Of a stretch of 64,000 bases of DNA, positions 8,228-58,935 are shown in pieces. How positions within the stretch are numbered: position 1 is the first letter of the stretch; each line of letters starts with the position of its first letter. The stretch is from Chiloscyllium plagiosum (Eukaryota): NCBI RefSeq assembly GCF_004010195.1, contig NC_057718.1:77268202-77332201 (forward strand), in the 5' to 3' direction. The notes below the pieces were generated by a model. That model ran no database searches and had not been told where the DNA came from. It saw only the letters and a list, made by a program, of their open reading frames with translations. The translations under genes and the position numbers were made by a program.

Positions 8228-10849
8228 TTGAGAGTGTGGTGCTGGAAAAGCATAGCAGGTCAGGCAGCATTCAAGGAGCAAGAGAATCGACGTTTCGGGC
8301 ATAAGCCTTTCATCAGGAATGAGGCTCATGGGCTGGGGGCTGAGAAATAAATGGGAGGGGGTGGGGGTGGGGGGAAGGTAGCTGAGAATGCAATAGGTAG
8401 ATGAAGGTGAGGGAGAAGATAATAGGTCGGAGAGGAGGTTGGAGCAGATAGATGGGAAAGGTGTGGACCGGTCAGGAGGGCGGTGCTGAGTTGGAGGCTT
8501 GGGACTGGGATAATTTGGGGGGAGGGAAAATGAGGAAACTGGTGAAATCCACATTGATCCTGTGTGGCCTGAGATGACAAGGCAGGTGACAAGGCAGAAT
8601 ATGAGGCGTTCTTCCTCTAGGTGTCAGATGGTAAGGATTTGGAGATGGAGGAGGCCCAGGACCTGCATGTCCTTGGCGGAGTGGGAGGGGATGTTGAAGT
8701 GTTCAGCCATGGGGCAGTGGGGTTTGTTGGTGCAGATGTCCAGAAATGTTCTCTGAAACAATCCACAACTAGGCATCCTGTTTCCCTGATGCAGAGGAGA
8801 CCACATTGGGTGCAATGGATACAGTTTGGCGCACTGACTTCTACACCACTGAAGCCAGGCGCCAACTCGCAGACACCTCCTCTTACTGCCCCCTCGACCA
8901 CAACGTCACCTCCCATCATCAAACCAATATCTCCCAGACCATCCACAACCTCATCACCTCAGGGCATCTCCCATCCACAGTCTCCAACCTCATTGTCTGT
9001 GAACTCTACATTGCCCGATTCTACCGCATACTGAAGATTCACAAACCTGACTTCCCCAGTCGACCCATTGTCTCAGCCTGCTCCTGTCTCACTGAACTCA
9101 TTTTTGAATACCTTGACACCATCCTGTCCCCCTTAGTCTAGGAACTCCCCACCTATGTTCGGGACACCACCCACGCCCTTCACTCCTCCAAGATTTTCGT
9201 TTCCCCAGCCCCCAATGCCTCATCGACACCAGGGACATCCAGTCCCTGTACATATCCATCTGCCACGACAAAGGCTTCCAGCCCTCCGTTTCTTCCTCTC
9301 ACATTGTCCCAATCAGTACCCTTCCACTGACACCCTCATCCGCCTGGCTGAACTGGTCCTCACCCTTAACAACTTCTCTTCCAATCCTCCCACTTCCTCC
9401 AAACCAAAGGGGTAGTCATACACACCCGCATAGGACCCAACTATGCCTTCCTCTTTGATGGGTCTGTGGAACAGTCCATCTTCTGCAGTTACACCGGCAC
9501 CACACCCCACCTATTCCTCCGCAACATCGATGACTGCATTTCCTCGTGCTCCCATGAGGAGGTTGAACAGTTCATCAAATTTAGTAACACCTTTCACCGC
9601 AACCTCAAATTCACCTGGAACATCTCAGACACCTCCCTCTCCTTCCTGGATGTCTCCATCTCCATCTCCGGCAACCGACTAACCATGGATGTCTACTACA
9701 AACCCACCAACTCCCACAGCTACCTAGCCTACACCTCCTCCCACCCTATCTCCTATTAAAAAAAGCCATCCCTTATTCCCAATTCTTCTGCCTCTGCCGT
9801 GTCTGTTCCAAAGATGACCAATTCCACCTCAGAAAATTCCAGATGACCTCCTTCCAAGATTGCAATTTCCCTTACCATTGGTTGATGATGTCCTCCAGCG
9901 CTTCTCTTCCACTTCCTGCACCTCCGCCCTTGAACCCCATGCCTCCCAACGCAACAAGAACAGAACTCTCCCTGGTCCTCACCTTCCACCCTACCAACTT
10001 CTGCCATAATTGCATCATCCTTTGCCCCTTCTGCTGCCTATAAACGGACCCCACCACCAGATATATTTTTCCCTCCCCGCCCCTATCAGTGTTCTGGAAA
10101 GACCATTCCCTTCTTGACACCCTCACCGGACCCACACTCCCCATCAGCCCACACCTCACTTCTGTCCAAGGCCCCCAAAGGATCCTTCCACATTCGACAG
10201 AAATTTACCTGTACCTCTGCCAATGTTATCTATTGTATCTGTTACACCCAATGTGGTCTCCTCTACATTGAAGAGACAGGATGCCTACTTGTGGATCATT
10301 TCAGAGAACATTTCTGGGACACCTGCACCAACCAACCCCACTGCCTCGCAGCTGACACTTCAAGTCTCTCTCCAACTCCGCCAAGGACATGCAGGTCCTG
10401 GGTCTCCTCCATCACCAAACTCTTACCACCTGACGCCTGGAGGAAAAACGCCTCATATTCCACCTTGGCAACCACACAGGGTCAAAGTGGATTTCACCAG
10501 TTGCCTCATATCCTCTCCCTCCAAATTATCACAATCCCAAGCCTCCAACACAATACCACCCTCCTGACTTGTCAATCACCTTTTCCATTAATCCACTCCA
10601 CCCTCCTTTCCGACCTATCACCTTCTCCCTCACCTTCATCTACCTATCGCATTCTCAGCTACGTTCGCACTAACCCCACCCCCTCCCATTTATCTCTCAG
10701 CCACCCCAGCCCACAAGCCTCATTCCTGATGAAGGGCTTGTGCCCGAAACATCGATTCTCCTGCTCCAAGGATGCTGCCTAACCTGCTGTGCTTTTGCAG
10801 CACCACACTACCGACTGATCTCCAGCATCTGCAGTCTTCACTTTTGCCT
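8228..10849 (+). mobile_element. Penelope-like retroelement (RT + GIY-YIG), 5'-truncated, with an inverted 3'-end copy at 8228-~8825
   Basis: KIHKPD.P.RPIVS, LFLRNIDD and VYYKPTN RT motifs; FTCTSANVIYCIC..CGLLYIEETG GIY-YIG motif. TSD agctttacaaaagag (8213-8227) / agctttatacaagag (10850-10864). Confidence 0.92.
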
Positions 10850-13329
10850 AGCTTTATACAAGAGGCCTGAGTTTCTGTATGAAATAAGTCTTGTGTATTT
10901 AGATGCATGTTCTCGGCTTGCTGTCCATATTGCATGAAATTTTAGGCCACTGATTTCACATGTTGCAACCCTAAAACCTAACAGTCTTGGGGACAAGGCC
11001 TGGGCAGCAAGTTTGGTTGGCAGTGCAAGGAACAGAAACAGCATCAGAAGTCAACACTTTAACTTCCTATATAGCTGAAACACAGATTACTTGCAGATAT
11101 TTGGAGTAGATACAGTCACAAAATAATAGGATTCCATGACAGAGATTGAAGGTTTTATTTACTAGTCGAAATGTTTGACCCATTAACAAAACATGTGCTT
11201 TAAAGGTGCATCATCACAGAAAGGGCACACTTTATGTTTATGACTCCACTATTTAAATTGTAAGATTTAAACATGTAGAATAAATGTAGAAATGCATTTC
11301 CTTTAAAATGGATGTGAATTTAAAATGGTGAGGTTGGACACTGAAAGCTTGCATGGAACATGATAATATCCTGAAACTGGAATTTGAACCAAAAATGACT
11401 GCACCAAACATAAGTAGATGCGTACTCCACTGCATGTTGTTCCTTCTACTATGGTGTTACTTCTATTTTTCTAAATGTCGGGTTGCACCTGAACTGGAGG
11501 GGCAACAATACCCTGGGCAGGAGGTTTGCAAGAGCTCTTCAGGAAGGTTTAAACTAGTTTGGCAGGGGGGTTGGAACCAGAGCTACAGATCTGAGGAAGG
11601 CATAGGTATTGAACAGTTAGATACAACATGAAGAGATCTGTGATGAGGGATAGACAGTTGATAGGGCAAAGTTGCAGTCAGTATGATAAGTTGAAGTATG
11701 TCTATTTTAATACAAGAAGTATCAGGAATAAGGGTGATGAACTTAAGAGCCTGGATCAGTAGATGGAATTAAGATGTTTGGCCATTACGGAGACTTGATA
11801 TCACAGGGGCAGGAATGGTTTATTGGATGTTCCAGGGTTTAGATGTTTCAAAAGGAATTGTGGTGGGGGTGAATGGGGGGTAAAAGAGATGGGGGAATGG
11901 CATTGCTAATCAGCCACAGGATCATAGCTGCAGATAGGGAGGTGGCGAGAAGGGTTTGTCTACATAGTCAGAATGGGTGGTAGTCTCAGAAATAGGAAAG
12001 AAGCAGTTACTTTATTGGGAGTTTTCTATAACTCCCCCACCCCCACCCCAATGGCAACAGACACGGAGGAGCAGATTGGGAAGAAGATTTTGGAAAGGTG
12101 CAGAAATAACAGGGTTGTTGTCAGGGGTGACTTTAACTTCCCTAATATTGATTGGAACCTCTTATTTCAAATAGTTTGGATGGAGTAGTTTTTGTCAGGT
12201 GTGGCCAGGAAGGATTAGATAGATTGACGAAAGGGGAGGCCATATTGGATTTGATGCTTGGCAACAAACCAGGCCAGGTGTCAGATCTGTCAGTGGGAGA
12301 GCATTTTGGTGATAGTGGTCACAATTCCCTGACCTTTACTATAGTCATGGAAAGTGATAGGAGCAGACAATATGGGAAAGTATTTAATGGGGTGGGGGGG
12401 GGAATTATAATGCTATTAGGCAGGAACTGAGGTGCCTAAATTGGGAACAGATGTTCTCATGAAAATGCACAACAGAAATGTGAAGGTTGTTTAGGGAGAA
12501 CTTGTTGATAGTACTGGATAGGTTTGTCTCACTGAGGCAAGGAACGGATGATAGAGTGAAGGAACCTTCGGTGACAAGGGATGTAGAACTTCTAGTTAAG
12601 AGGAAGAAAGATGCAGACTTAAGGTTCAGGAGGCAAGGATCAGACAGGGCTTTAGATGGTTATAAGTTAACCAGAAAGGTACTGAAGAATGGACTTAGGA
12701 GACCTAGAAAGGGGCATGAAAAAACTTTAGCTGGTAGGATTAAGGAAAACACTAAGGCATTATACAATTTCGTGAGGAACAGGAGGATGGCCAGGGTGAG
12801 GATAGGGTCAATCAGAGATATTGGAGGGTACTTGTGCCTGGAGTCAGAGGAGGTAGAGGAGGTTCTTAATGATTACTTAACTTCAGTATTCACTACTGAG
12901 ATAGACCTTGTTGTTTGTGAGGACAGCATGGAACAGTTGATGTTAAGAAGGAGGATGTGCTGAAAATGTTGAAAAACATAAGGATAGATAACTCCCCTAA
13001 GCCAGATGGGATATATCCAAGGTTACTACGAGAAGCGAGGGAAGAGTTTGCTGCACCTTTGGTGATGATCTTCGCGTCCTCACTGTCGACTGGATTAGGG
13101 CCAGATGATTGGAGGGTGGTAAATGTTATTCCTTTGTTCAAGAAAGGGAATAGGGATCATCCTGGCAGATAATGACCAGTCAGTCTTACATCCGTGGTAG
13201 GTAAATTATTGGAGAAGATTCTGATAGACAGGATTTATGATGACTTGAAAACCATAGTTTGATTAGAGGTAGTCAGCATGGCTTTGTGAGGAGCCAGTCA
13301 TGCCTCACAAGCCTTATTGAATTCTTTGA

Positions 13330-13924
13330 TTCGGAGATGCCGGTGTTGGACTGGGGTGTACAAAGTTAAAAATCACACAACACCAGGTTATAGTCCAACA
13401 GGTTTAATTGGAAGCACACTAGCTTTCGGAGCGACGCTCCTTCATCAGGTGATTGTGGAGGGCTCGATCGTAACACAGAATTTATAGCAAAAATTTGCAG
13501 TGTGATGTAACTGAAATTATACATTGAAGAATTGATTGCATGAATTTATGTAAAACTCTGTTATCTCACTTTTTAGATTGGAATCAATCTAAACATCAGA
13601 TCATAGACAGAGAACACAGGGGGCTAACACCTTCAACATATTGTCTAGCTATCACCATTGTTAACAGCTAACCCGAGAATGCAACTTTAAAAAAAAGGTT
13701 TTGTGATTTACACATGAAAGAAGTGAAACTATCACTGTATTCTAACAGATGAAAGGCTTAACAGACAATCAATTCTTCAATGTATAATTTCAGTTACATC
13801 ACACTGCAAATTTTTGATATAAATTCTGTGTTACGATCGAGCCCTCCACAATCACCTGATGAAGGAGGGTCGCTCTGAAAGCTAGTGTGCTTCCAATTAA
13901 ACCTGGTGTTGTGTGATTTTTAAC
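13330..13924. mobile_element. Hammerhead-bearing inverted-repeat element (second Penelope-type pLTR family) inserted in CR1
   Basis: Perfect 12-bp TSD tgaattctttga (13318-13329, 13925-13936); inverted arms ~13364-13538 and ~13766-13924, each with CAC-CTGATGA-AGGAG..CTC(C/T)GAAAGCTA-GTG. Confidence 0.88.
13853..13887 (+). ncRNA. Minimal hammerhead motif (cleaner mirror copy on the minus strand at ~13417-13451)
   Basis: CAC-CUGAUGA-AGGAG..CUCU-GAAA-GC-UA-GUG; stem I CAC/GUG, palindromic AGCU stem III. Confidence 0.65.
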
Positions 13925-15179
13925 TGAATTCTTTGAGGATGTGACAAACACATTGATGAAGGTAGAGCAGTGGATATGGTGTACATAGATTTTAGCAAGG
14001 CATTTGATAAGGTTCCCAATGGTAGGCTCATTCAGAAAGTAAGGAGGCATGGGATACAGGAAAGTCTGGCTGTCTGGATACAGAATTGGCTGGCCCACAG
14101 AAGACAGAGGTGATAGTACATGGAAAGTATTTAGCTTGGAGTTTGGTGACCAGTGGTGTTCCACAGGGATCTTTCTGGGACCTCTGCTCTTTGTAATTTC
14201 TATAAATAACTTGGATGAGGAAGTGGAAGGGTGGGTTAGTAAGTTTGCCAATGATATGAAGGTTGGTGGAGTGGTGGATAACGTGGAGGGCTGTTGTAGG
14301 TTGCAATGGGACATTGACAAGATGCAGAAATGGGCTGATAAATAGCAGATGGAATTCAATCTGGAAAAGTGTAAAGTGGTTCATTTTGGAAGGTCGAATT
14401 TAAATGCAGAATACAGGGTTAAAGGCAGGATTCTTGGCAGTATGGAGGAACAGTGGGATCTTGGGGTCCATGTCCATAGATCCCTCAAAGTTGCCACCAA
14501 GTTGATACGATTGTTAAGAAAGTGTATAGTGTGTTGGTTTTCATTAGCAGCGGGATTGAGTTTAAGAGCCATGAAGTTATGCTGCATCTGTAAAGAGCCC
14601 TGGTTAGACCACACTTGGAATATTGTGTTCAATTCTAGTCACTTCATTATAGGAACAATGTGGAAGCTTAAGAGACAGTGCAGAGGAGATTTACCAGGAT
14701 GTTGCCTGGACTGGAGGGCATGTGTTATGAAGTGACATTGAGTTAGCAAAGGCTTTTCTCATTGGAGCAAAAAAGGGTGAGAGGTGTACAAGATGGTGAG
14801 AGGCATAAATAGAATGGATAGCCAGAGACTTTTTCCCAGGGGGCATAATTTTAAGGTGATTGGAGGAAGGTTTAAGGGAGATATCAGAGGTAGGTTCTTT
14901 ATACAGAGGTAGATGGGTGCATGGAATGCACTGCCAGCAGTGGTAGTTAATTCAGATGCATTAGGGACATTTAAGCGACACATGGATGATAGTACAACAT
15001 AAGTTAGTTTGACCTTAAGAGTAGGATAAAGGGTTGGCACAACATTAAGGGCTGAAGAGATTGTACTGTGCTGTACTGTATGTTCAATGTTCTATGTTCT
15101 AAACATTATAGCAGAAAATGAATAAAGGTATAACTTACTGACTTAGTGTTTATGTTTCTTCTGTGTTGTTTCTTAGATT

Positions 15180-15345
15180 CAAAACTCTAGCTTTTAGAGC
15201 ACTGCTCCTTCACCAGGTGCTAGTCCCTAATGAAGGAGCAGTGCTGTGAAAGCCAGTGTTTTCAAAAAAACCCATTGGACTATAATCTGGTGTTGTGTGA
15301 TTTTTGACCTTGTCAACGCAGAACAACACTGGCATCGCCACATCC
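15180..15345. repeat. Degenerate short copy of the 13330-type hammerhead element
   Basis: gctccttcaccagg / taatgaaggagcagtgctgtgaaagc inverted pair followed by ggactataatctggtgttgtgtgattttt. Confidence 0.7.
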
Positions 15346-15799: not shown

Positions 15800-16915
15800 T
15801 TTCTCAATGAGAGTCTGAGTCGCTGGGCAGATTTCTGGTGACCTTTATTTACTTCATTACAGTAAAAAGCAAGGCACGAAGGCATGAAAAAGCACACAAA
15901 CTTCAGAATGTCTTATTTCATATATGTTAACTTAGAGTGCACATGCCACCACCATCACCACCCCCCCCCCCGCCCTTGATTACTATTAGTCAGCAGTACC
16001 GAGTTGTCACTCTGTGATTGGCTTTCTCGTACAGCATCATTACTGAGATGGACAGGTTCAAGGCCTAATCATGGTCCTTCATGATGTTCTTGAGGCTTCA
16101 ATGGTTACTGTCCGAGTAATATTTGCCAGAACTTCCAATTAATTAGGTCAAGAATTTTAAACTTATTATTAAAGGGAAAACAAAAGAATGTTGACATCTG
16201 ATCAGTTCCAACAGTTATGTGGTTTAGCACATCCCAATTCACATTCCAATATCTTAAGATAGAAAAGGGACCTAATGGGCAACTTTTTCACACAGAGGCT
16301 GGTGCGTATATGGAATGAGCTGTCAGAGGAAGTGTTGGAGACTGGTACAATTATAGCGTTTAAAAGACATCTGGATGGGTATATGAAAAGGAAAGGTTTA
16401 GAGGGATATGGGCCAAGTGCCGGTAAATGGGTCAAGATCAGGTTAGGATATCTGGTCGGCATGGATGAATTGGACCGAAGGGTCTGCTTCCGTGCTGTAC
16501 ATCTCTATGACTCTAAGTGAACGAGACAGAGAAAGACTTTTCTTGCTGCACTTGCTGAACTAATTGTTAACTATTTGTGGTCTTTTATGAAGTAACTCAG
16601 ATCTAGAGTTATTGATTAAACAACTCATTAGTGTGAGGTAGTCAAAAGTGCTATTGCTCAAATGTTGTTATCTTATGTGTTAGTTTCAAATGTTCTATGA
16701 AAAATAGCCAAATGTTGATAAATGTTATATCTTCTTTTGCATCAGTTACAACTCAAGAAAATGTTGCTGTCAGCAATAGTTGTAGGCAGCCCTAACAGCC
16801 ATTTTGTGTATGGGCACCCCTAACTATCATTTTATGTTACTCATTTATGGGCATCCCTAACAGCCATTTTGTACTACTCAGATATGGGCAACCCTTACAG
16901 TCATTATTGTTGGTT
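15800..16915. repeat. Unclassified interspersed repeat (same family as 41832-42644), with a CR1 3' fragment at ~16260-16515
   Basis: Shared blocks tcaatgaga..., aaaagaat.ttgac.t.tgatcagttccaaca and tgttg..gtcagcaata; ~36-bp tandem units at 16785-16905. Confidence 0.6.
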
Positions 16916-22665: not shown

Positions 22666-24445
22666 TAGATTAGATTAGACTACTTACAGTGTGGAAACAG
22701 GCCCTCCATCCAACAAGTCCACACCCTGCCAAATGTAAGGTTGTCCATTTTGGAAGGACAAATAAGAATGCGGAATACAGGGTTAACAGTAGGGTTCTTA
22801 GTAAGGTGGAGGAGCAGAGGGATCTTGGGGTCTATGTTCATAGATCTTTGAAAGTTGCCACTCAGGTGGATAGAGCTTGTAAGAAGGCCTATGGTGTATT
22901 AGCGTTCATTAGCAGAGGGATTGAATTCAAGAGTCGTGAAGTGATGTTACAGCTGTACAGGACTTTTGTTAGACCACATTTGGAGTACTGTGTGCAGTTC
23001 TGGTCGCCTCACTTTAGGAAAGATGTGGAAGCTTTGGAGAGGGTGCAAAGAAGATTTACCAGGATGTTGCCTGGAATGGAGAATAGGTCATATGAGGTTA
23101 GGTTGAGCGTGCGAGGCCTTTTCTCATTGGAACGGAGAAGGATGAGAGGTGACTTGATAGAGGTGTATAAGATGATCAGGGGAATAGATAGAGGAGACAA
23201 TCAGAAACTTTTTCCCCGGGTACAACAGAGTGTTACAAGGGGACATAAATTTAAGGTGAAGGGTGGAAGGTATAGGGGAGATGTCAGGGGTAGGTTCTTT
23301 ACCCAGAGAGTGGTGGGGGCATAGAATGCGCTGCCNNNNNNNNNNNNNNNNNNNNNNNNNNNNNNNNNNNNNNNNNNNNNNNNNNNNNNNNNNNNNNNNN
23401 NNNNNNNNNNNNNNNNNNNNNNNNNNNNNNNNNNNNNNNNNNNNNNNNNNNNNNNNNNNNNNNNNNNNNNNNNNNNNNNNNNNNNNNNNNNNNNNNNNNN
23501 NNNNNNNNNNNNNNNNNNNNNNNNNNNNNNNNNNNNNNNNNNNNNNNNNNNNNNNNNNNNNNNNNNNNNNNNNNNNNNNNNNNNNNNNNNNNNNNNNNNN
23601 NNNNNNNNNNNNNNNNNNNNNNNNNNNNNNNNNNNNNNNNNNNNNNNNNNNNNNNNNNNNNNNNNNNNNNNNNNNNNNNNNNNNNNNNNNNNNNNNNGAG
23701 GAGGTTTACCAGGATGCTGCCTGGACTGGAGGGCTTATCTTATGAAGAGAGGTTGACTGAGCTCGGACTCGCTTCATTGGAGAAAAGGAGGAGGAGAGGG
23801 GACCTAATTGAGGTATACAAGATAATGAGAGGCATAGATAGAGTCGATAGCCAGAGACTATTTCCCAGGGCAGAAATGACTAACACGAGGGGTCATAGTT
23901 TTAAGCTGTTTGGAGGAAAGTATAGAGGGGATATGAGAGGTGGGTTCTTTACACAGAGAGTTGTGAGAGCATGGAATGCGTTGCCAGCAGCAGTTGTGGA
24001 AGCAAAGTCATTGGGGACACTTAAGAGACTACTGGACATGCATATGGTCACAGAAATTTGAGTGTGCATACATGAGGATCAGTGGTCGGCACAACATCGT
24101 GGGCTGAAGGGCCTGTTCTGTGCTGTACTGTTCTATGTTCTATGTATTGATTACACCGAAAGAGAAATAATAAACAGGCGAATAATGAAGCAATGCTGAG
24201 GTACAGGTTATAGTGTATCGCCCAAATAGGGGTTCTATATATGAATACATGGAGTTTAAGGAATAAATTAAATGAGCTGAATGCACAAATTCAACCCACC
24301 GAAGCGCAACCCACCCAGGCCCATTGCCTTACACTTACCCCTTCACCTAACACTACAGGCAGTTTAGTATGGCCAATTCACCTAACCTGCCCATTTTTGA
24401 AATGTGGGAGGAAACCGGAGCACCCAGAGGAAACCCACGCAGACA
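22666..24445. mobile_element. HE1/V-SINE-like fragment (minus; 22666-22725 and 24292-24445) interrupted by + strand CR1 3' fragments (22727-24145)
   Basis: agattagattag..acagtgtggaaacaggcc tail and ggaggaaaccggagcacccagaggaaacccacgcagacac core; CR1 ORFs 22689-23324 and 23714-24061. Confidence 0.8.
23336..23697. other. Assembly gap (N run)
   Basis: Seen directly. Confidence 1.
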
Positions 24446-31699: not shown

Positions 31700-32620
31700 A
31701 GCAAACACCAGACACCTGTTCCCCACCTCTTCCTTGTCAGCATTCTGCAGAGACCATTGCCTCCAGCACACCCTGGTCCACTCCTCCATTACCAACACCT
31801 TCCCACATCCCCATGGCATCCTTCCATTTAATCGCAGAAGGTACAACACTTATCCATTTATCTCTTCCCTCCTCACCATCCAAGGCTTCAGGCACACCTT
31901 CCAGGTGAAGCAGTAATTTATCTGCACTTCATTAAATCTAGTCTCTTGTATTCACTGATCACACTGTGATCTCCTCTACAATGGGGGGATGAAATGCAGA
32001 TTGTGACCACTTGCAGAACACCTAAATTCTTCCTGTAAAAATGGCCATGAGCTTTCAGCACATGCCACTTTGACACAACACTGTATTCCCATGCAAACAT
32101 TTCTGTCTCAGGTCTGTTGCAGTGCTCCAGTGAGACTCAAAGGAAGCTGGAGGAATAACACCAAATCTTTCACTTAGGTGCCTTTCAACCTTAAGGAATT
32201 CACATCGAGCTTAACAAGTTCAGAGCAGGAATGCCTCCTTCCACATTCACTATCTACCCCCACAACATCCATGAAATGATTGGTCTTCAGCACAGCCAAC
32301 ACATTTACAACTATTCATACTCTGTCCCCATTATCAGCCTCATAGCTTCTCTTCTTCCCTGGCTTACTATCAACAATCCCTTTGTCTGCTGACTCTTTTT
32401 CTTTCTCTCTGGGTTCCATCTCCACTGATCAGCTCACTCCCCCTCCATATCCCTCTTCATCAACGTAAATACCTCCTTTTCCTAGCTGCTTCTAGTTCTG
32501 AAGAAGGGTCACTGGACTTGAAATATTAATTGTTTTCTCTTCACAAATACCAATAAACCTGATGGGTTTCTCCAGCAATTTCTTGTATTATTTGTTTCAG
32601 ACCTCCAGCATCCTCAGTTC
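31700..32620 (+). mobile_element. Older Penelope-like 3' fragment (GIY-YIG plus pLTR with degenerate hammerhead at ~32498), with an associated short piece at ~31185-31318
   Basis: FQVKQ.FICTSLNLVSCI..SHCDLLY motif; ctgaagaagggtcactggacttgaaa; 31274-31318 is an inverted copy of ~31707-31752. Confidence 0.75.
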
Positions 32621-33782: not shown

Positions 33783-33979
33783 GAAAATGTGTTGCTGGAA
33801 AAGCGCAGCAGGTCAGGCAGCATCCAAGGAACAGGAGAATCGACGTTTCGGGCATAAGCCCTTCTTCAGGAATGCCCGAAACGTCGATTCTCCTGTTCTT
33901 TGGATGCTGCCTGACCTGCTGCGCTTTTCCAGCAACACATTCCGATCTCCAGCATCTGCAACCCTCACTTTCTTCTCGA
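33783..33979. mobile_element. Young hairpin Penelope-derived insertion
   Basis: 70-bp arms 33786-33855 / 33872-33941; 14-bp TSD aggtgtatatagcc (33769-33782) / aggtgtgtatagcc (33980-33993). Confidence 0.92.
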
Positions 33980-36869: not shown

Positions 36870-37740
36870 AATTTGAGTGCTCCTGGATCCAGAGCAAACA
36901 CATCTGCACTAAGTGTTCGGTGCCTCAAAGATCTTAGTATTAGACTTTTGAGCTGCAGACATTGTGGTACATAAGGGTGGGGGAATGTTACCTGGATGCT
37001 TTGTATCAGGAGGCAGTCACATCCTTAGAATAGGGTTTTCTGATTTAGTGAGTGTTCAAAAACGGGGTTTATGATTTCTAATGAGGTAGGTAAAGGGTAC
37101 CAGAGGGCAGAAGTTTAGCAATCTAAGCTTTTGCAATTGCCCAACATGTTTCAGGTTCTTTCAACTTGTTAAGATGAAAGTGTGCGACAGAGTGGATGAC
37201 CAAACTGACTTAGTCATTATGATATAGGAAGCCATTCAAGTTGGGCATTCGGGGCACCAGGGAAAAGGAATGTCATGCTTGTATTGGAGGCAGCATAAGT
37301 GGGAAGGAAGATGGATTTAGCACTATTCCTGCAGCATAGAGCAAGAGTTCAGACGGCTATGTTGTCTGCTGAAAAGGAGCCTACGGTGGGAGGGGGAGAA
37401 TGCAATCATTATGGCCTATGTAGGTACCAATGTCCGAAGCAGGACAAGGAAAGAGGCTCTGCGTAGTCAATATGAAGAGCTAGTTTCCAAATTAAGAAGC
37501 AGAACTTAAAAGGTATAATAATGCTTGCATTATCGCTGAAACCATGTGTAAATTGGCATAGAGCAAAGAAAATCACAGAAATAAAAGCATGTCTCGATAA
37601 TTGATATGTGAGAAATGGGTCCCATTCATAGGGACTGGCACCCATACTGCGGAATGTGAAGACTGTCCATTGGGGCAGTCTGCACCTGAGCCACACTAGG
37701 GTCATAGTAAGCTGTATAATAAGGAAGTTGTGAGGGTTTT
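36870..37740 (+). mobile_element. Decayed CR1 ORF1 (esterase-like) region
   Basis: VGTN-like motif at ~37420 and GSLHLSH (cf. DGLHL) at ~37675; continuation toward ORF2 at 41300-41830. Confidence 0.55.
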
Positions 37741-37741
37741 A

Positions 37742-38715
37742 CACAAACCTGACTGCCCCGGCCGACCCATTGTCTCCGCCTGCTCCTGCCCCACCGAACT
37801 CATCTCCGCATACCTTGACACCGTCCTGTCCCCCTTAGTCCAAGAACTCCCCACCTACGTTCGGGACACCACCCATGCCCTCCACCTGCTCCATGATTTT
37901 CGCTTCCCCGGTCCCCAACGCCTTATTTTCACCATGGACATCCAGTCCCTGTACACCTCCATCCCCCATCACGAAGGACTCAAATTCCTCTGCTTCTTTC
38001 TGCAAGGACCGCAATTTCCCCCCCGACGTGGTCGACGATGCCCTCCACCGCATCTCTTCCACTTCCCGCTCCTCCGCCCTTGAACCCCGCCCCTCCAACC
38101 GCCACCAGGACAGAACCCCACTGGTCCTCACCTACCACCCCACCAACCTCCATGTACAGCGCATCATCCGCCGTCACTTCCGCCACCTCCAAACAGACCC
38201 AAGCACCAAGGATATATTTCCCTCCCCTCCCCTATCAGCTTTCCGTAGAGACCACTACCTCCGCGACTCCCTTGTCAGATCCACACCCCCCACCGACCCA
38301 ACCTAACCACAACAACCCGACGGTCGGAGGAGGAGCGTCTTATCTTCCGACTGGGAACCCTCCAACCGCAGGGGATGAACTTGGACCTCACCAGTTTCTT
38401 CATCCCCCCTCCCCCCACCTTGTCTCACCCGGATCCCTCCAGCCCGGCACCGCCTTCCTGACCTGCAGTCTTCTTCTTGACCTCTCCGCCTCCACCCTAC
38501 TCCGACCTATCACCCTCACCTTGACCTCTTTCCACCTATCACATTCCCAACTCCCCTCCTCCAAGTCCCTCCTCCCTACCTTTTATCTTCTCCTGCTGAA
38601 CACTCTCTGCTCATTCCTGAAGAAGGGCCTGTGCCCGAAACGTCGAATCTCCTGTTCCCTGGATGCTGCCTGACCTGCTGTGCTGTTCCAGCAATAAAGT
38701 TTCAACTTTGATCCC
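37742..38715 (+). mobile_element. Penelope-like element, internally deleted, with an intact pLTR hammerhead
   Basis: HKPDCPGRPIVSAC, FTMDIQSLYTSIPH and RTPLVLTYHP motifs; 3' pLTR. Confidence 0.9.
38613..38648 (+). ncRNA. Minimal type I hammerhead ribozyme motif (Penelope pLTR)
   Basis: AUUC-CUGAAGA-A-GGGC(CUGU)GCCC-GAAAC-GUC-GAAU: stem I AUUC/GAAU, stem II, palindromic ACGU stem III. Predicted cut after 38644. Confidence 0.7.
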
Positions 38716-57534: not shown

Positions 57535-58935
57535 TGCAGATGCTGGAGATCAGAGCTGAAAAATGTGTTGCTGGAAAAGCGCAGCAGGTCAGGCAGCATC
57601 CAAGAAGCAGGAGAATTGACGTTTCGGGCAAAGGCTCTTCTTCAGGAATGAGGAGGGTGTGCCAAGCAGGCTAAGATAAAAGGTAGGGAGGAGGGACTTG
57701 GGGGAGGGGCGTTGGGAATGCGATAGGTGTATGGACGTTAAGGTGAGGGTGATAGGCCGGAGAGGGNNNNNNNNNNNNNNNNNNNNNNNNNNNNNNNNNN
57801 NNNNNNNNNNNNNNNNNNNNNNNNNNNNNNNNNNNNNNNNNNNNNNNNNNNNNNNNNNNNNNNNNNNNNNNNNNNNNNNNNNNNNNNNNNNNNNNNNNNN
57901 NNNNNNNNNNNNNNNNNNNNNNNNNNNNNNNNNNNNNNNNNNNNNNNNNNNNNNNNNNNNNNNNNNNNNNNNNNNNNNNNNNNNNNNNNNNNNNNNNNNN
58001 NNNNNNNNNNNNNNNNNNNNNNNNNNNNNNNNNNNNNNNNNNNNNNNNNNNNNNNNNNNNNNNNNNNNNNNNNNNNNNNNNNNNNNNNNNNNNNNNNNNN
58101 NNNNNNNNNNNNNNNNNNNNNNNNNNNNNNNNNNNNNNNNNNNNNNNNNNNNNNNNNNNNNNNNNNNNNNNNNNNNNNNNNNNNNNNNNNNNNNNNNNNN
58201 NNNNNNNNNNNNNNNNNNNNNNNNNNNNNNNNNNNNNNNNNNNNNNNNNNNNNNNNNNNNNNNNNNNNNNNNNNNNNNNNNNNNNNNNNNNNNNNNNNNN
58301 NNNNNNNNNNNNNNNNNNNNNNNNNNNNNNNNNNNNNNNNNNNNNNNNNNNNNNNNNNNNNNNNNNNNNNNNNNNNNNNNNNNNNNNNNNNNNNNNNNNN
58401 NNNNNNNNNNNNNNNNNNNNNNNNNNNNNNNNNNNNNNNNNNNNNNNNNNNNNNNNNNNNNNNNNNNNNNNNNNNNNNNNNNNNNNNNNNNNNNNNNNNN
58501 NNNNNNNAACTCCCCCTCCCACTCCACCAAGGACATGCAGGTCCTTGGCCTCCTCCATCGCCAGACCATGGCAACATGACGCCTGGAGGAACCCGCCAAC
58601 CACAAGGGATGAACTCAGATTTCTCCAGCTTCCTCATTTCCCCTGCCCCCACCTTATCTCAGTCCCACCCCTCGGACTCAGCACCGCCTTCTTGACCTGC
58701 AATCTTCTTCCCGACCACCTCCACCCCCTCTCCGGCCTATCACCCTCACCTTAACCTCCATACACCTATCGCATTCCCAATGCCCCTCCCCCAAGTCCCT
58801 CCTCCCTACCTTTTATCTTAGCCTGCTTGGCACACCCTCCTCATTCCTGAAGAAGGGCTTATGCCCGAAATGTCAATTCTGCTCCTTAGATGCTGCCTGA
58901 CCTGCTGCGCTTTTCCAGCAACACATTTTTCAGCT
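57535..58935. mobile_element. Penelope-like element with inverted pLTRs around an assembly gap
   Basis: 57553-57766 is the reverse complement of ~58727-58936; GIY-YIG tail (HSTKDMQVLGLL) after the gap; hammerhead-like core at ~58847. Confidence 0.85.
57767..58507. other. Assembly gap (N run)
   Basis: Seen directly. Confidence 1.

Follow-up and report, generated by a model that had tools for sequence, protein, structure and literature searches.

A young head-to-head insert with hammerhead motifs in a Chiloscyllium plagiosum LINE, probably placed by a Penelope-like element

A 595-bp insert (13330-13924) in a 64,000-nt stretch of the Chiloscyllium plagiosum genome, the whole of which we call the window, is made up of a pair of head-to-head copies, both 5'-truncated, of the end of one abundant repeat. 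It very probably arose by a single insertion of an endonuclease-bearing Penelope-like element (PLE), probably Neptune-type, which set both truncated ends into an old LINE, at an AT-rich position. The insertion pattern is ordinary and has been described since at least 2013; the insert is young and is a clean example of an inverted Penelope-like insertion. It bears on the open question of how inverted structures form, in that neither arm contains the other and the outer ends fall on two end clusters of the family. An earlier account based on the letters of the window (the sequence-only reading) had offered two explanations, of which the first, that a second Penelope-like family left a remnant with inverted pLTRs, is supported by the end clusters, the continuation of the family past the junction, the one-sided tail and the target site duplication (TSD).

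Structure of the insert and its target site

The insert lies between perfect 12-nt direct repeats, TGAATTCTTTGA (13318-13329 and 13925-13936, both on the forward strand); the word is 75% AT, and such a repeat has a chance probability of about 4e-5 over 300 placements. A perfect 12-bp TSD had been claimed, and the repeat is indeed perfect, but run alignments show TGA at 13327-13329 to be also the last three bases of the tailed family end and T13925 to be also a family base; since these bases belong to both target and element, the TSD itself is 8-12 bp. The host is a decayed forward-strand LINE (approximately 12484-15101), which from its motif style we take to be CR1-like, and whose RT region the insert interrupts (RVT_1 E 2.5e-4, weaker than the curated cut-off). 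In translation the host RT frame crosses the insertion site, with ...SCLTSLIEFF before it and EFFEDVT... after it. In two runs, 46 and 80 contigs pass from 13329 directly into the letters of the right flank, so the LINE family has the 12-mer once.

Inside this LINE, as the sequence-only reading had it, are inverted arms, at 13364-13538 (175 nt) and 13766-13925 (160 nt), identical at 157 of 160 aligned bases (BLAST E ~1e-66), with one 15-nt deletion between two CAGGTT repeats in the right arm. The inverted copies are real, but the insert is asymmetric, with a tail on the left arm only and an apparent spacer that continues the right arm. The short arm, a 5'-truncated family end of 212 nt with its hammerhead-sense on the minus strand (13327-13538), includes the tail of 34-37 nt (13327-13363, minus strand) between the family end clusters at 13327 and 13360-13365. 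The long arm, a 5'-truncated, tail-less family end of 389 nt with its hammerhead-sense on the plus strand (13537-13925), ends at the tail-less cluster. The two meet at the inversion junction in a TG common to both (13537-13538), a 2-nt microhomology, the left arm being family-like to 13538 and the long arm from 13537. The apparent spacer (13539-13765, 227 nt, plus strand) is non-coding family sequence, present once and upstream of the doubled part, as judged from opposite-strand joints, depth in all four aligned runs and translations.

Compared with the majority letters of the family, the insert has 3 known differences in 212 nt and 7 in 389 nt. At 13497 and 13529 (13807 and 13775 in the mirror arm) the two arms agree in having G, where contig depth reads A at 65-77% and 80-99%, and this sharing of minority letters therefore points to one source and one event. 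There is no ORF in the insert, in agreement with the sequence-only reading, the longest stop-free stretch being 59 codons. We found no second copy of the inversion junction within the 64-kb window and, the arms being inverted, no direct (head-to-tail) repeat of the unit nearby.

The window also holds an older head-to-head relative (15174-15345, plus strand) with a tail on its right arm, both hammerhead cores damaged and a possible 7-bp TSD, TGTTTCT. At 79% identity to the insert over 117 nt, it makes good the claim of a decayed relative near 15180-15345. It inverts within 10 nt upstream of its hammerhead cores, so that the window contains two different breakpoints. As a side observation, it belongs to a sister subfamily, and its left arm stops near the position of the poly(A) hexamer, at neither end cluster.

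The repeat family in sequencing runs

Of 24 runs in a run index, 20, which come from 10 studies and bear four organism labels, contain 61-86% of the words of the insert; the index records no RNA run as a holder of these words. We aligned four of the 24 (three contig sets and one raw RNA run, the poly(A)-selected X21) to 13000-13765, which takes in the left flank, left arm, junction and middle and leaves the right arm outside. The aligned material comprised 92,893, 165,758 and 72,368 contigs together with 3,017 reads, and the pieces and loose ends described below are the best 24 of about 313,000 pieces and the best 24 of 1,592 loose-end rows. The runs possibly come from species other than that of the window, and their results describe the family rather than the locus.

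Among the listed loose-end rows, family sequence breaks off at two clusters 33-38 nt apart: before 13327, in 359, 287 and 143 records of X1, X3 and X21, respectively, and before 13360-13365, in 304 and 264 records of X1 and 186 and 225 of X3. Beyond both clusters lies unrelated AT-rich DNA. The insert's outer ends match them, the left arm ending at 13327 and the right arm (the mirror of 13364) at 13360-13365. The letters beyond 13327 form a consensus ending in TAGTCA in X1 and X3, whose agreement of only 0.37-0.38 is too weak to count; we note aside that, if correct, it has an ATG exactly where the tail ends, a possible ORF start in tandem copies.

At the inversion point, 67, 104 and 43 contigs have loose ends before 13537 with one common upstream sequence, and 34 and 62 contigs go on behind 13538 with the letters of the insert's middle (all among the listed rows). 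Opposite-strand joints of 13538 to 13765 occur in 33, 18 and 15 contigs and, in the RNA run, in 247 reads, all among the listed pieces. Because contigs and reads join 13538 to 13765 and continue with the middle's letters, the 227-nt spacer is ordinary family sequence; and because the family extends past the inversion point both ways, a fold-back is not the family's form. Depth in the RNA run falls from 567 at 13529 to 57 at 13547, so at most 57 of 567 reads can cross the junction, and a minor subset of family copies may have the insert's own junction. The sequence-only reading had taken random breakpoints, together with a match to the 3' end of a catalogued Penelope element, as the mark of an ordinary truncated insertion. 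The inner breakpoints are indeed not family-wide, but the outer ends are non-random, lying on the two clusters.

Summed depth in X1 declines with distance from the family end (19.0, 6.4, 3.3, 1.0 and 0.5 million; these values are not copy numbers), and this gradient is the shape of 5' truncation. At the tail, X1 depth steps from 8.9 to 19.0 million. Element-sense RNA predominates in X21. A pattern scan with a 21-nt family word gave 0 matches in viral and metagenome contigs.

The family end also contains a poly(A) signal with addition sites (13388-13408, minus strand). A hexamer with a nearby addition site and a GU-rich downstream stretch makes a conventional poly(A) site. Here the hexamer is ATTAAA (13403-13408), which a common variant at 13407 (A>T) turns into AATAAA in other copies, and poly-T loose ends occur before 13388 (415 reads) and 13391 (338 reads) among the listed rows of X21. 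These addition sites lie 12-15 nt after ATTAAA, and the stretch behind them is GU-rich, not A-rich. In the insert's right arm, ATTAAA is followed by the site of the 15-nt deletion, here between two AACCTG repeats (13896-13905, plus strand), through which this arm has lost the addition sites. Upstream of both end clusters, the poly(A) site falls about 25 nt short of the tail-less end and about 62 nt short of the tailed one. An RNA that stops at this site cannot serve as template for a copy with a complete end, so the template for copying must read through it. The poly(A) reads represent the family in one organism rather than the insert's locus, and they may be host transcripts. A literature search, which left most subscription journals outside, found no paper on a poly(A) signal in pLTRs.

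Hammerhead motifs and the parent element

Each arm carries a hammerhead motif, with core starts 408 bp apart. The left one (13417-13451, minus strand) is an intact minimal type I motif by core scan, with features as described in PMC4209133: stem I CAC/GUG, core CUGAUGA, an extra A, stem II GGAGC/GCUCC, GAAA and a palindromic AGCU; the predicted cut is between 13420 and 13419. The right one (13853-13887, plus strand) is damaged by changes in stem II at 13868 and 13876, which make that stem GGAGG/GCUCU, with one pair lost and the G10.1-C11.1 pair turned into G-U. The predicted folding energy of stem II is -2.6 kcal/mol in the right arm versus -5.8 kcal/mol in the left. The sequence-only reading had given both arms the stem GGAGC/GCUCC, which holds for the left arm and not for the right. 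Since an Rfam search of the window with E up to 1 gave no hammerhead, the call rests on the core scan and the published minimal features.

Activity of these motifs draws no support from folding, because isolated hammerheads fold no better than shuffles (z -1.4, +0.5 and -1.5) and the dimer co-fold pairs through stem II rather than helix III. Folding predictions for the whole insert, made for both strands, have every base of the hammerhead core paired within the arm-arm duplex; the claim that either strand's transcript would carry a ribozyme is right as to sequence, but the core would be buried. Reads of X21 span the predicted cut, and no end pile appears there among the best 24 of 1,592 loose-end rows. 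A monomeric minimal motif showed no cleavage and dimers low cleavage (PMC4209133), and insertion in vitro was unchanged in hammerhead mutants (PMC11167929). The insert's hammerhead motifs are best read as passengers, and this copy, having no ORF, is dead.

The core scan gave 11 hammerhead motifs in the window, two of them within the insert. A different hammerhead family (CTGAAGAAGGGC...) occupies 8 other places in the motif scan, which upholds the statement that the insert's sequence is unlike that of the other pLTR family. The decayed RT and GIY-YIG remnants at 8773-10782 and 37700-38673 belong to another Penelope-like family, each ending in a hammerhead of this different type (CTGAwGAAGGGC...). 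A third hammerhead variant, at 32498, has stem II GGGTCA...TGGACTT and its own downstream sequence, and a short palindromic insert at 33818-33908, of the hammerhead family with 8 places in the window, has a weak mir-680 match in Rfam (E 0.92). We also observed four degenerate copies of a 28-37-nt unit (16780-16909) and runs of N, that is assembly gaps, inside repeat copies at about 23340-23700 and 57770-58500.

We found no RT or GIY-YIG sequence in the insert and no DNA link from its family to such an ORF; the linked RT/GIY-YIG ORF that the sequence-only reading had said to look for was thus not tied to the family's own DNA. A hammerhead-pattern scan had 2 matches in metagenome contigs and 0 in genome and viral contigs. 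Both matches, in the marine contigs L001 (966-1001) and L002 (1330-1365), are hammerheads identical to the left motif at 34 of 36 nt, in contigs that were found through that motif and have no DNA likeness to the insert outside its 36 nt. Each contig has AATAAA at a similar place. As a separate observation, conservation of the hammerhead motif reaches much further than that of the remaining element. In L002 the hammerhead follows a GIY-YIG-type ORF (48-581) at a distance of about 750 nt. The protein of this ORF has 44-47% identity to two others, of which one carries a Pfam RT domain, and 46-48% identity to shark proteins from a single PLE clade with members in Heptranchias, Scyliorhinus and Mustelus. 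By eye, a cysteine-rich linker is present in both the L002 ORF and the shark proteins. The parent element of the insert is probably Neptune-type. The other PLE remnant at 8794-10314 is only 26-30% identical to the shark/L002 clade, in line with the insert representing a second family. Pfam and NCBIfam recognised neither the window's other PLE fragments nor the L002 ORF.

Searches from the insert's side were negative within their scope. A 15-codon open frame before the tail end had only chance-level words of 4-6 residues in common with 152 PLE-type proteins. The protein P0005, picked because its start resembles that of shark PLE proteins and without a tie to the insert, yielded nothing in locus searches, and its first 130 residues matched 0 of 63 candidates among shorter proteins. 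A translated likeness of the left arm to shark PLE RT (26.2 bits) was dismissed as chance: 19 of 150 shuffles reach that score against all 303 proteins, and 0 of 100 do so against 32 shark proteins, a set chosen after the fact.

Origin of the inversion and comparison with known systems

Within the Penelope-like explanation, we consider it an even call that the inversion came about by dual priming. The element's enzyme would nick both target strands 8-12 bp apart. At the outer start site, three bases of the template would pair with the 3' end of the top strand (...TGA), from which the 212-nt tailed cDNA would be made; at the inner one, a single base would pair with the 3' end of the bottom strand, the primer of the 389-nt tail-less cDNA. 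Both cDNAs would stop early and join through the 2-nt overlap, after which gaps would be filled in, and the template would be a sense RNA that extends beyond the family's poly(A) site. Overlaps of 3, 1 and 2 nt are short enough that they could be due to chance. For another PLE, of the Poseidon clade, PMC11167929 reports in vitro that both target strands are cut and extended, with a preference for AT-rich sites, and that reverse transcription starts at two internal sites bounding the tail; that work covers neither inverted copies nor TSDs. On twin or dual priming, our literature search, again with most subscription journals outside, gave one human-TE review and nothing else.

Each arm has bases that the other is without. 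As neither lies wholly within its partner, a plain copy of one from the other does not account for the pair, and a plain fold-back of one on the other was rejected. A more elaborate route with the same type of element, which we hold possible but rather unlikely, would start with a self-primed hairpin that turns back at the 2-nt overlap and end with the trimming of one tail by the endonuclease; a self-primed hairpin intermediate on an antisense template is proposed in PMC3846280, and PMC8557442 suggests the endonuclease as the origin of the tail. The overlap is what a fold-back primer needs, and the two common minority letters and a difference at only 3 of 160 bases fit such copying. Yet the junction has a 227-nt offset in place of a palindrome, fold-back on the long arm cannot give the tail without extra trimming, and the tail-less end coincides with a family-wide end cluster, ends of the kind that in PMC11167929 are start sites of reverse transcription; as for an antisense template, it is element-sense RNA that predominates in X21. 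We judge it improbable that a longer inverted-end Penelope-like insertion lost its middle by microhomology-mediated deletion, the junction being the scar. The 2-nt overlap could be such a scar, the right arm has already undergone one repeat-mediated deletion of 15 nt, and PMC3846280 describes a derivative of this kind that has an internal deletion, inverted pLTRs and a TSD of 10 bp. Against this, the depth gradient indicates that most family copies are short from the start, and because of this and of the insert's youth (3 and 7 differences in 212 and 389 nt) a second event is unneeded.

That the insert is a non-autonomous fold-back element, retrozyme-like or MITE-like, whose 595 bp move together and whose ribozyme functions from either strand, was the other proposal of the sequence-only reading, and we regard it as very improbable. 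A clean TSD surrounds the whole structure, the arms are near-identical, and a minor set of copies with the same junction is possible. But the family extends past the junction both ways, the arms are unequal and their ends non-equivalent, the neighbouring relative inverts elsewhere, the 64 kb hold neither a head-to-tail repeat nor a second copy of the junction, and the right hammerhead is damaged, with both cores buried in the predicted duplex of a unit-length RNA.

Returning to dual priming by a Penelope-like element, the mutual non-containment of the arms, the position of their ends on the clusters and the fact that polyadenylated family RNAs stop short of both together constrain the template and favour priming from both target strands. 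If true, dual priming accounts in one step for the inversion, for a tail on one side only and for the TSD, and, with thousands of such inserts in the genome, it is open to counting. The wider proposition, that one-sided-tail inverted Penelope-like insertions in general reflect dual priming by a dimeric enzyme with 1-3 matched bases, read-through RNA and microhomology joining, we put forward tentatively, at somewhat short of even confidence. How inverted structures form is listed among the unsettled matters in PMC8557442.

Animal non-LTR retrozymes (PMC7229834; bioRxiv 10.64898/2026.07.22.740005) resemble the insert in being non-coding, in their type I hammerhead, in their derivation from PLE ends and in chondrichthyan occurrence. 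They consist of head-to-tail repeats with hammerheads on one strand and release circles, whereas the insert is head to head with one motif per strand; as its arms are inverted and no direct repeat of the unit lies nearby, we rejected this assignment. Plant-type LTR retrozymes, with a type III hammerhead, direct LTRs and a 4-bp TSD, were also rejected for an insert with a minimal type I motif, inverted arms and a TSD of 8-12 bp. A MITE or fold-back DNA transposon was set aside in view of the 37 extra bases at one end and the continuation of the family past the junction.

The minimal PLE hammerheads of PMC4209133 are like the left motif in their core, extra base before stem II, G10.1-C11.1 pair and AGCU in place of helix III, and in metazoan PLEs motif pairs are given there as lying 100-700 bp apart on opposite strands; the insert's stems I and II are of 3 and 5 bp versus 4-5 and 7-8 bp in Schistosoma. 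The Anolis carolinensis Poseidon element studied in vitro (PMC11167929) has, like the insert's family, two copy-end positions a tail-length apart and an AT-rich target, but it belongs to another clade, its hammerhead overlaps the ORF start and its priming proceeds without homology, whereas the insert shows 3 and 1 matching bases. The insert has the PLE features of a hammerhead in the terminal repeat, fixed 3' ends with heavy 5' truncation (from the end clusters and depth gradient), an adjacent inverted copy, a one-sided tail of 30-40 bp and a short TSD round the whole unit. An inverted pLTR, a 31-bp tail and a 9-bp TSD are presented as the typical Penelope structure in PMC3846280, and PMC8557442 extends the inverted pLTR, tail and TSD to all endonuclease-bearing clades. 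In these two sources, the endonuclease-bearing PLEs (Penelope/Poseidon, Neptune and Nematis) have in common with the insert a 5'-truncated copy inverted head to head, a tail of 30-40 bp at one end only (in the insert, on the left arm), a short TSD (8-10 bp in the published units, 8-12 bp here) and microhomology at the inner junction; unlike the published units, the insert has both copies truncated before any ORF and a junction without a palindrome.
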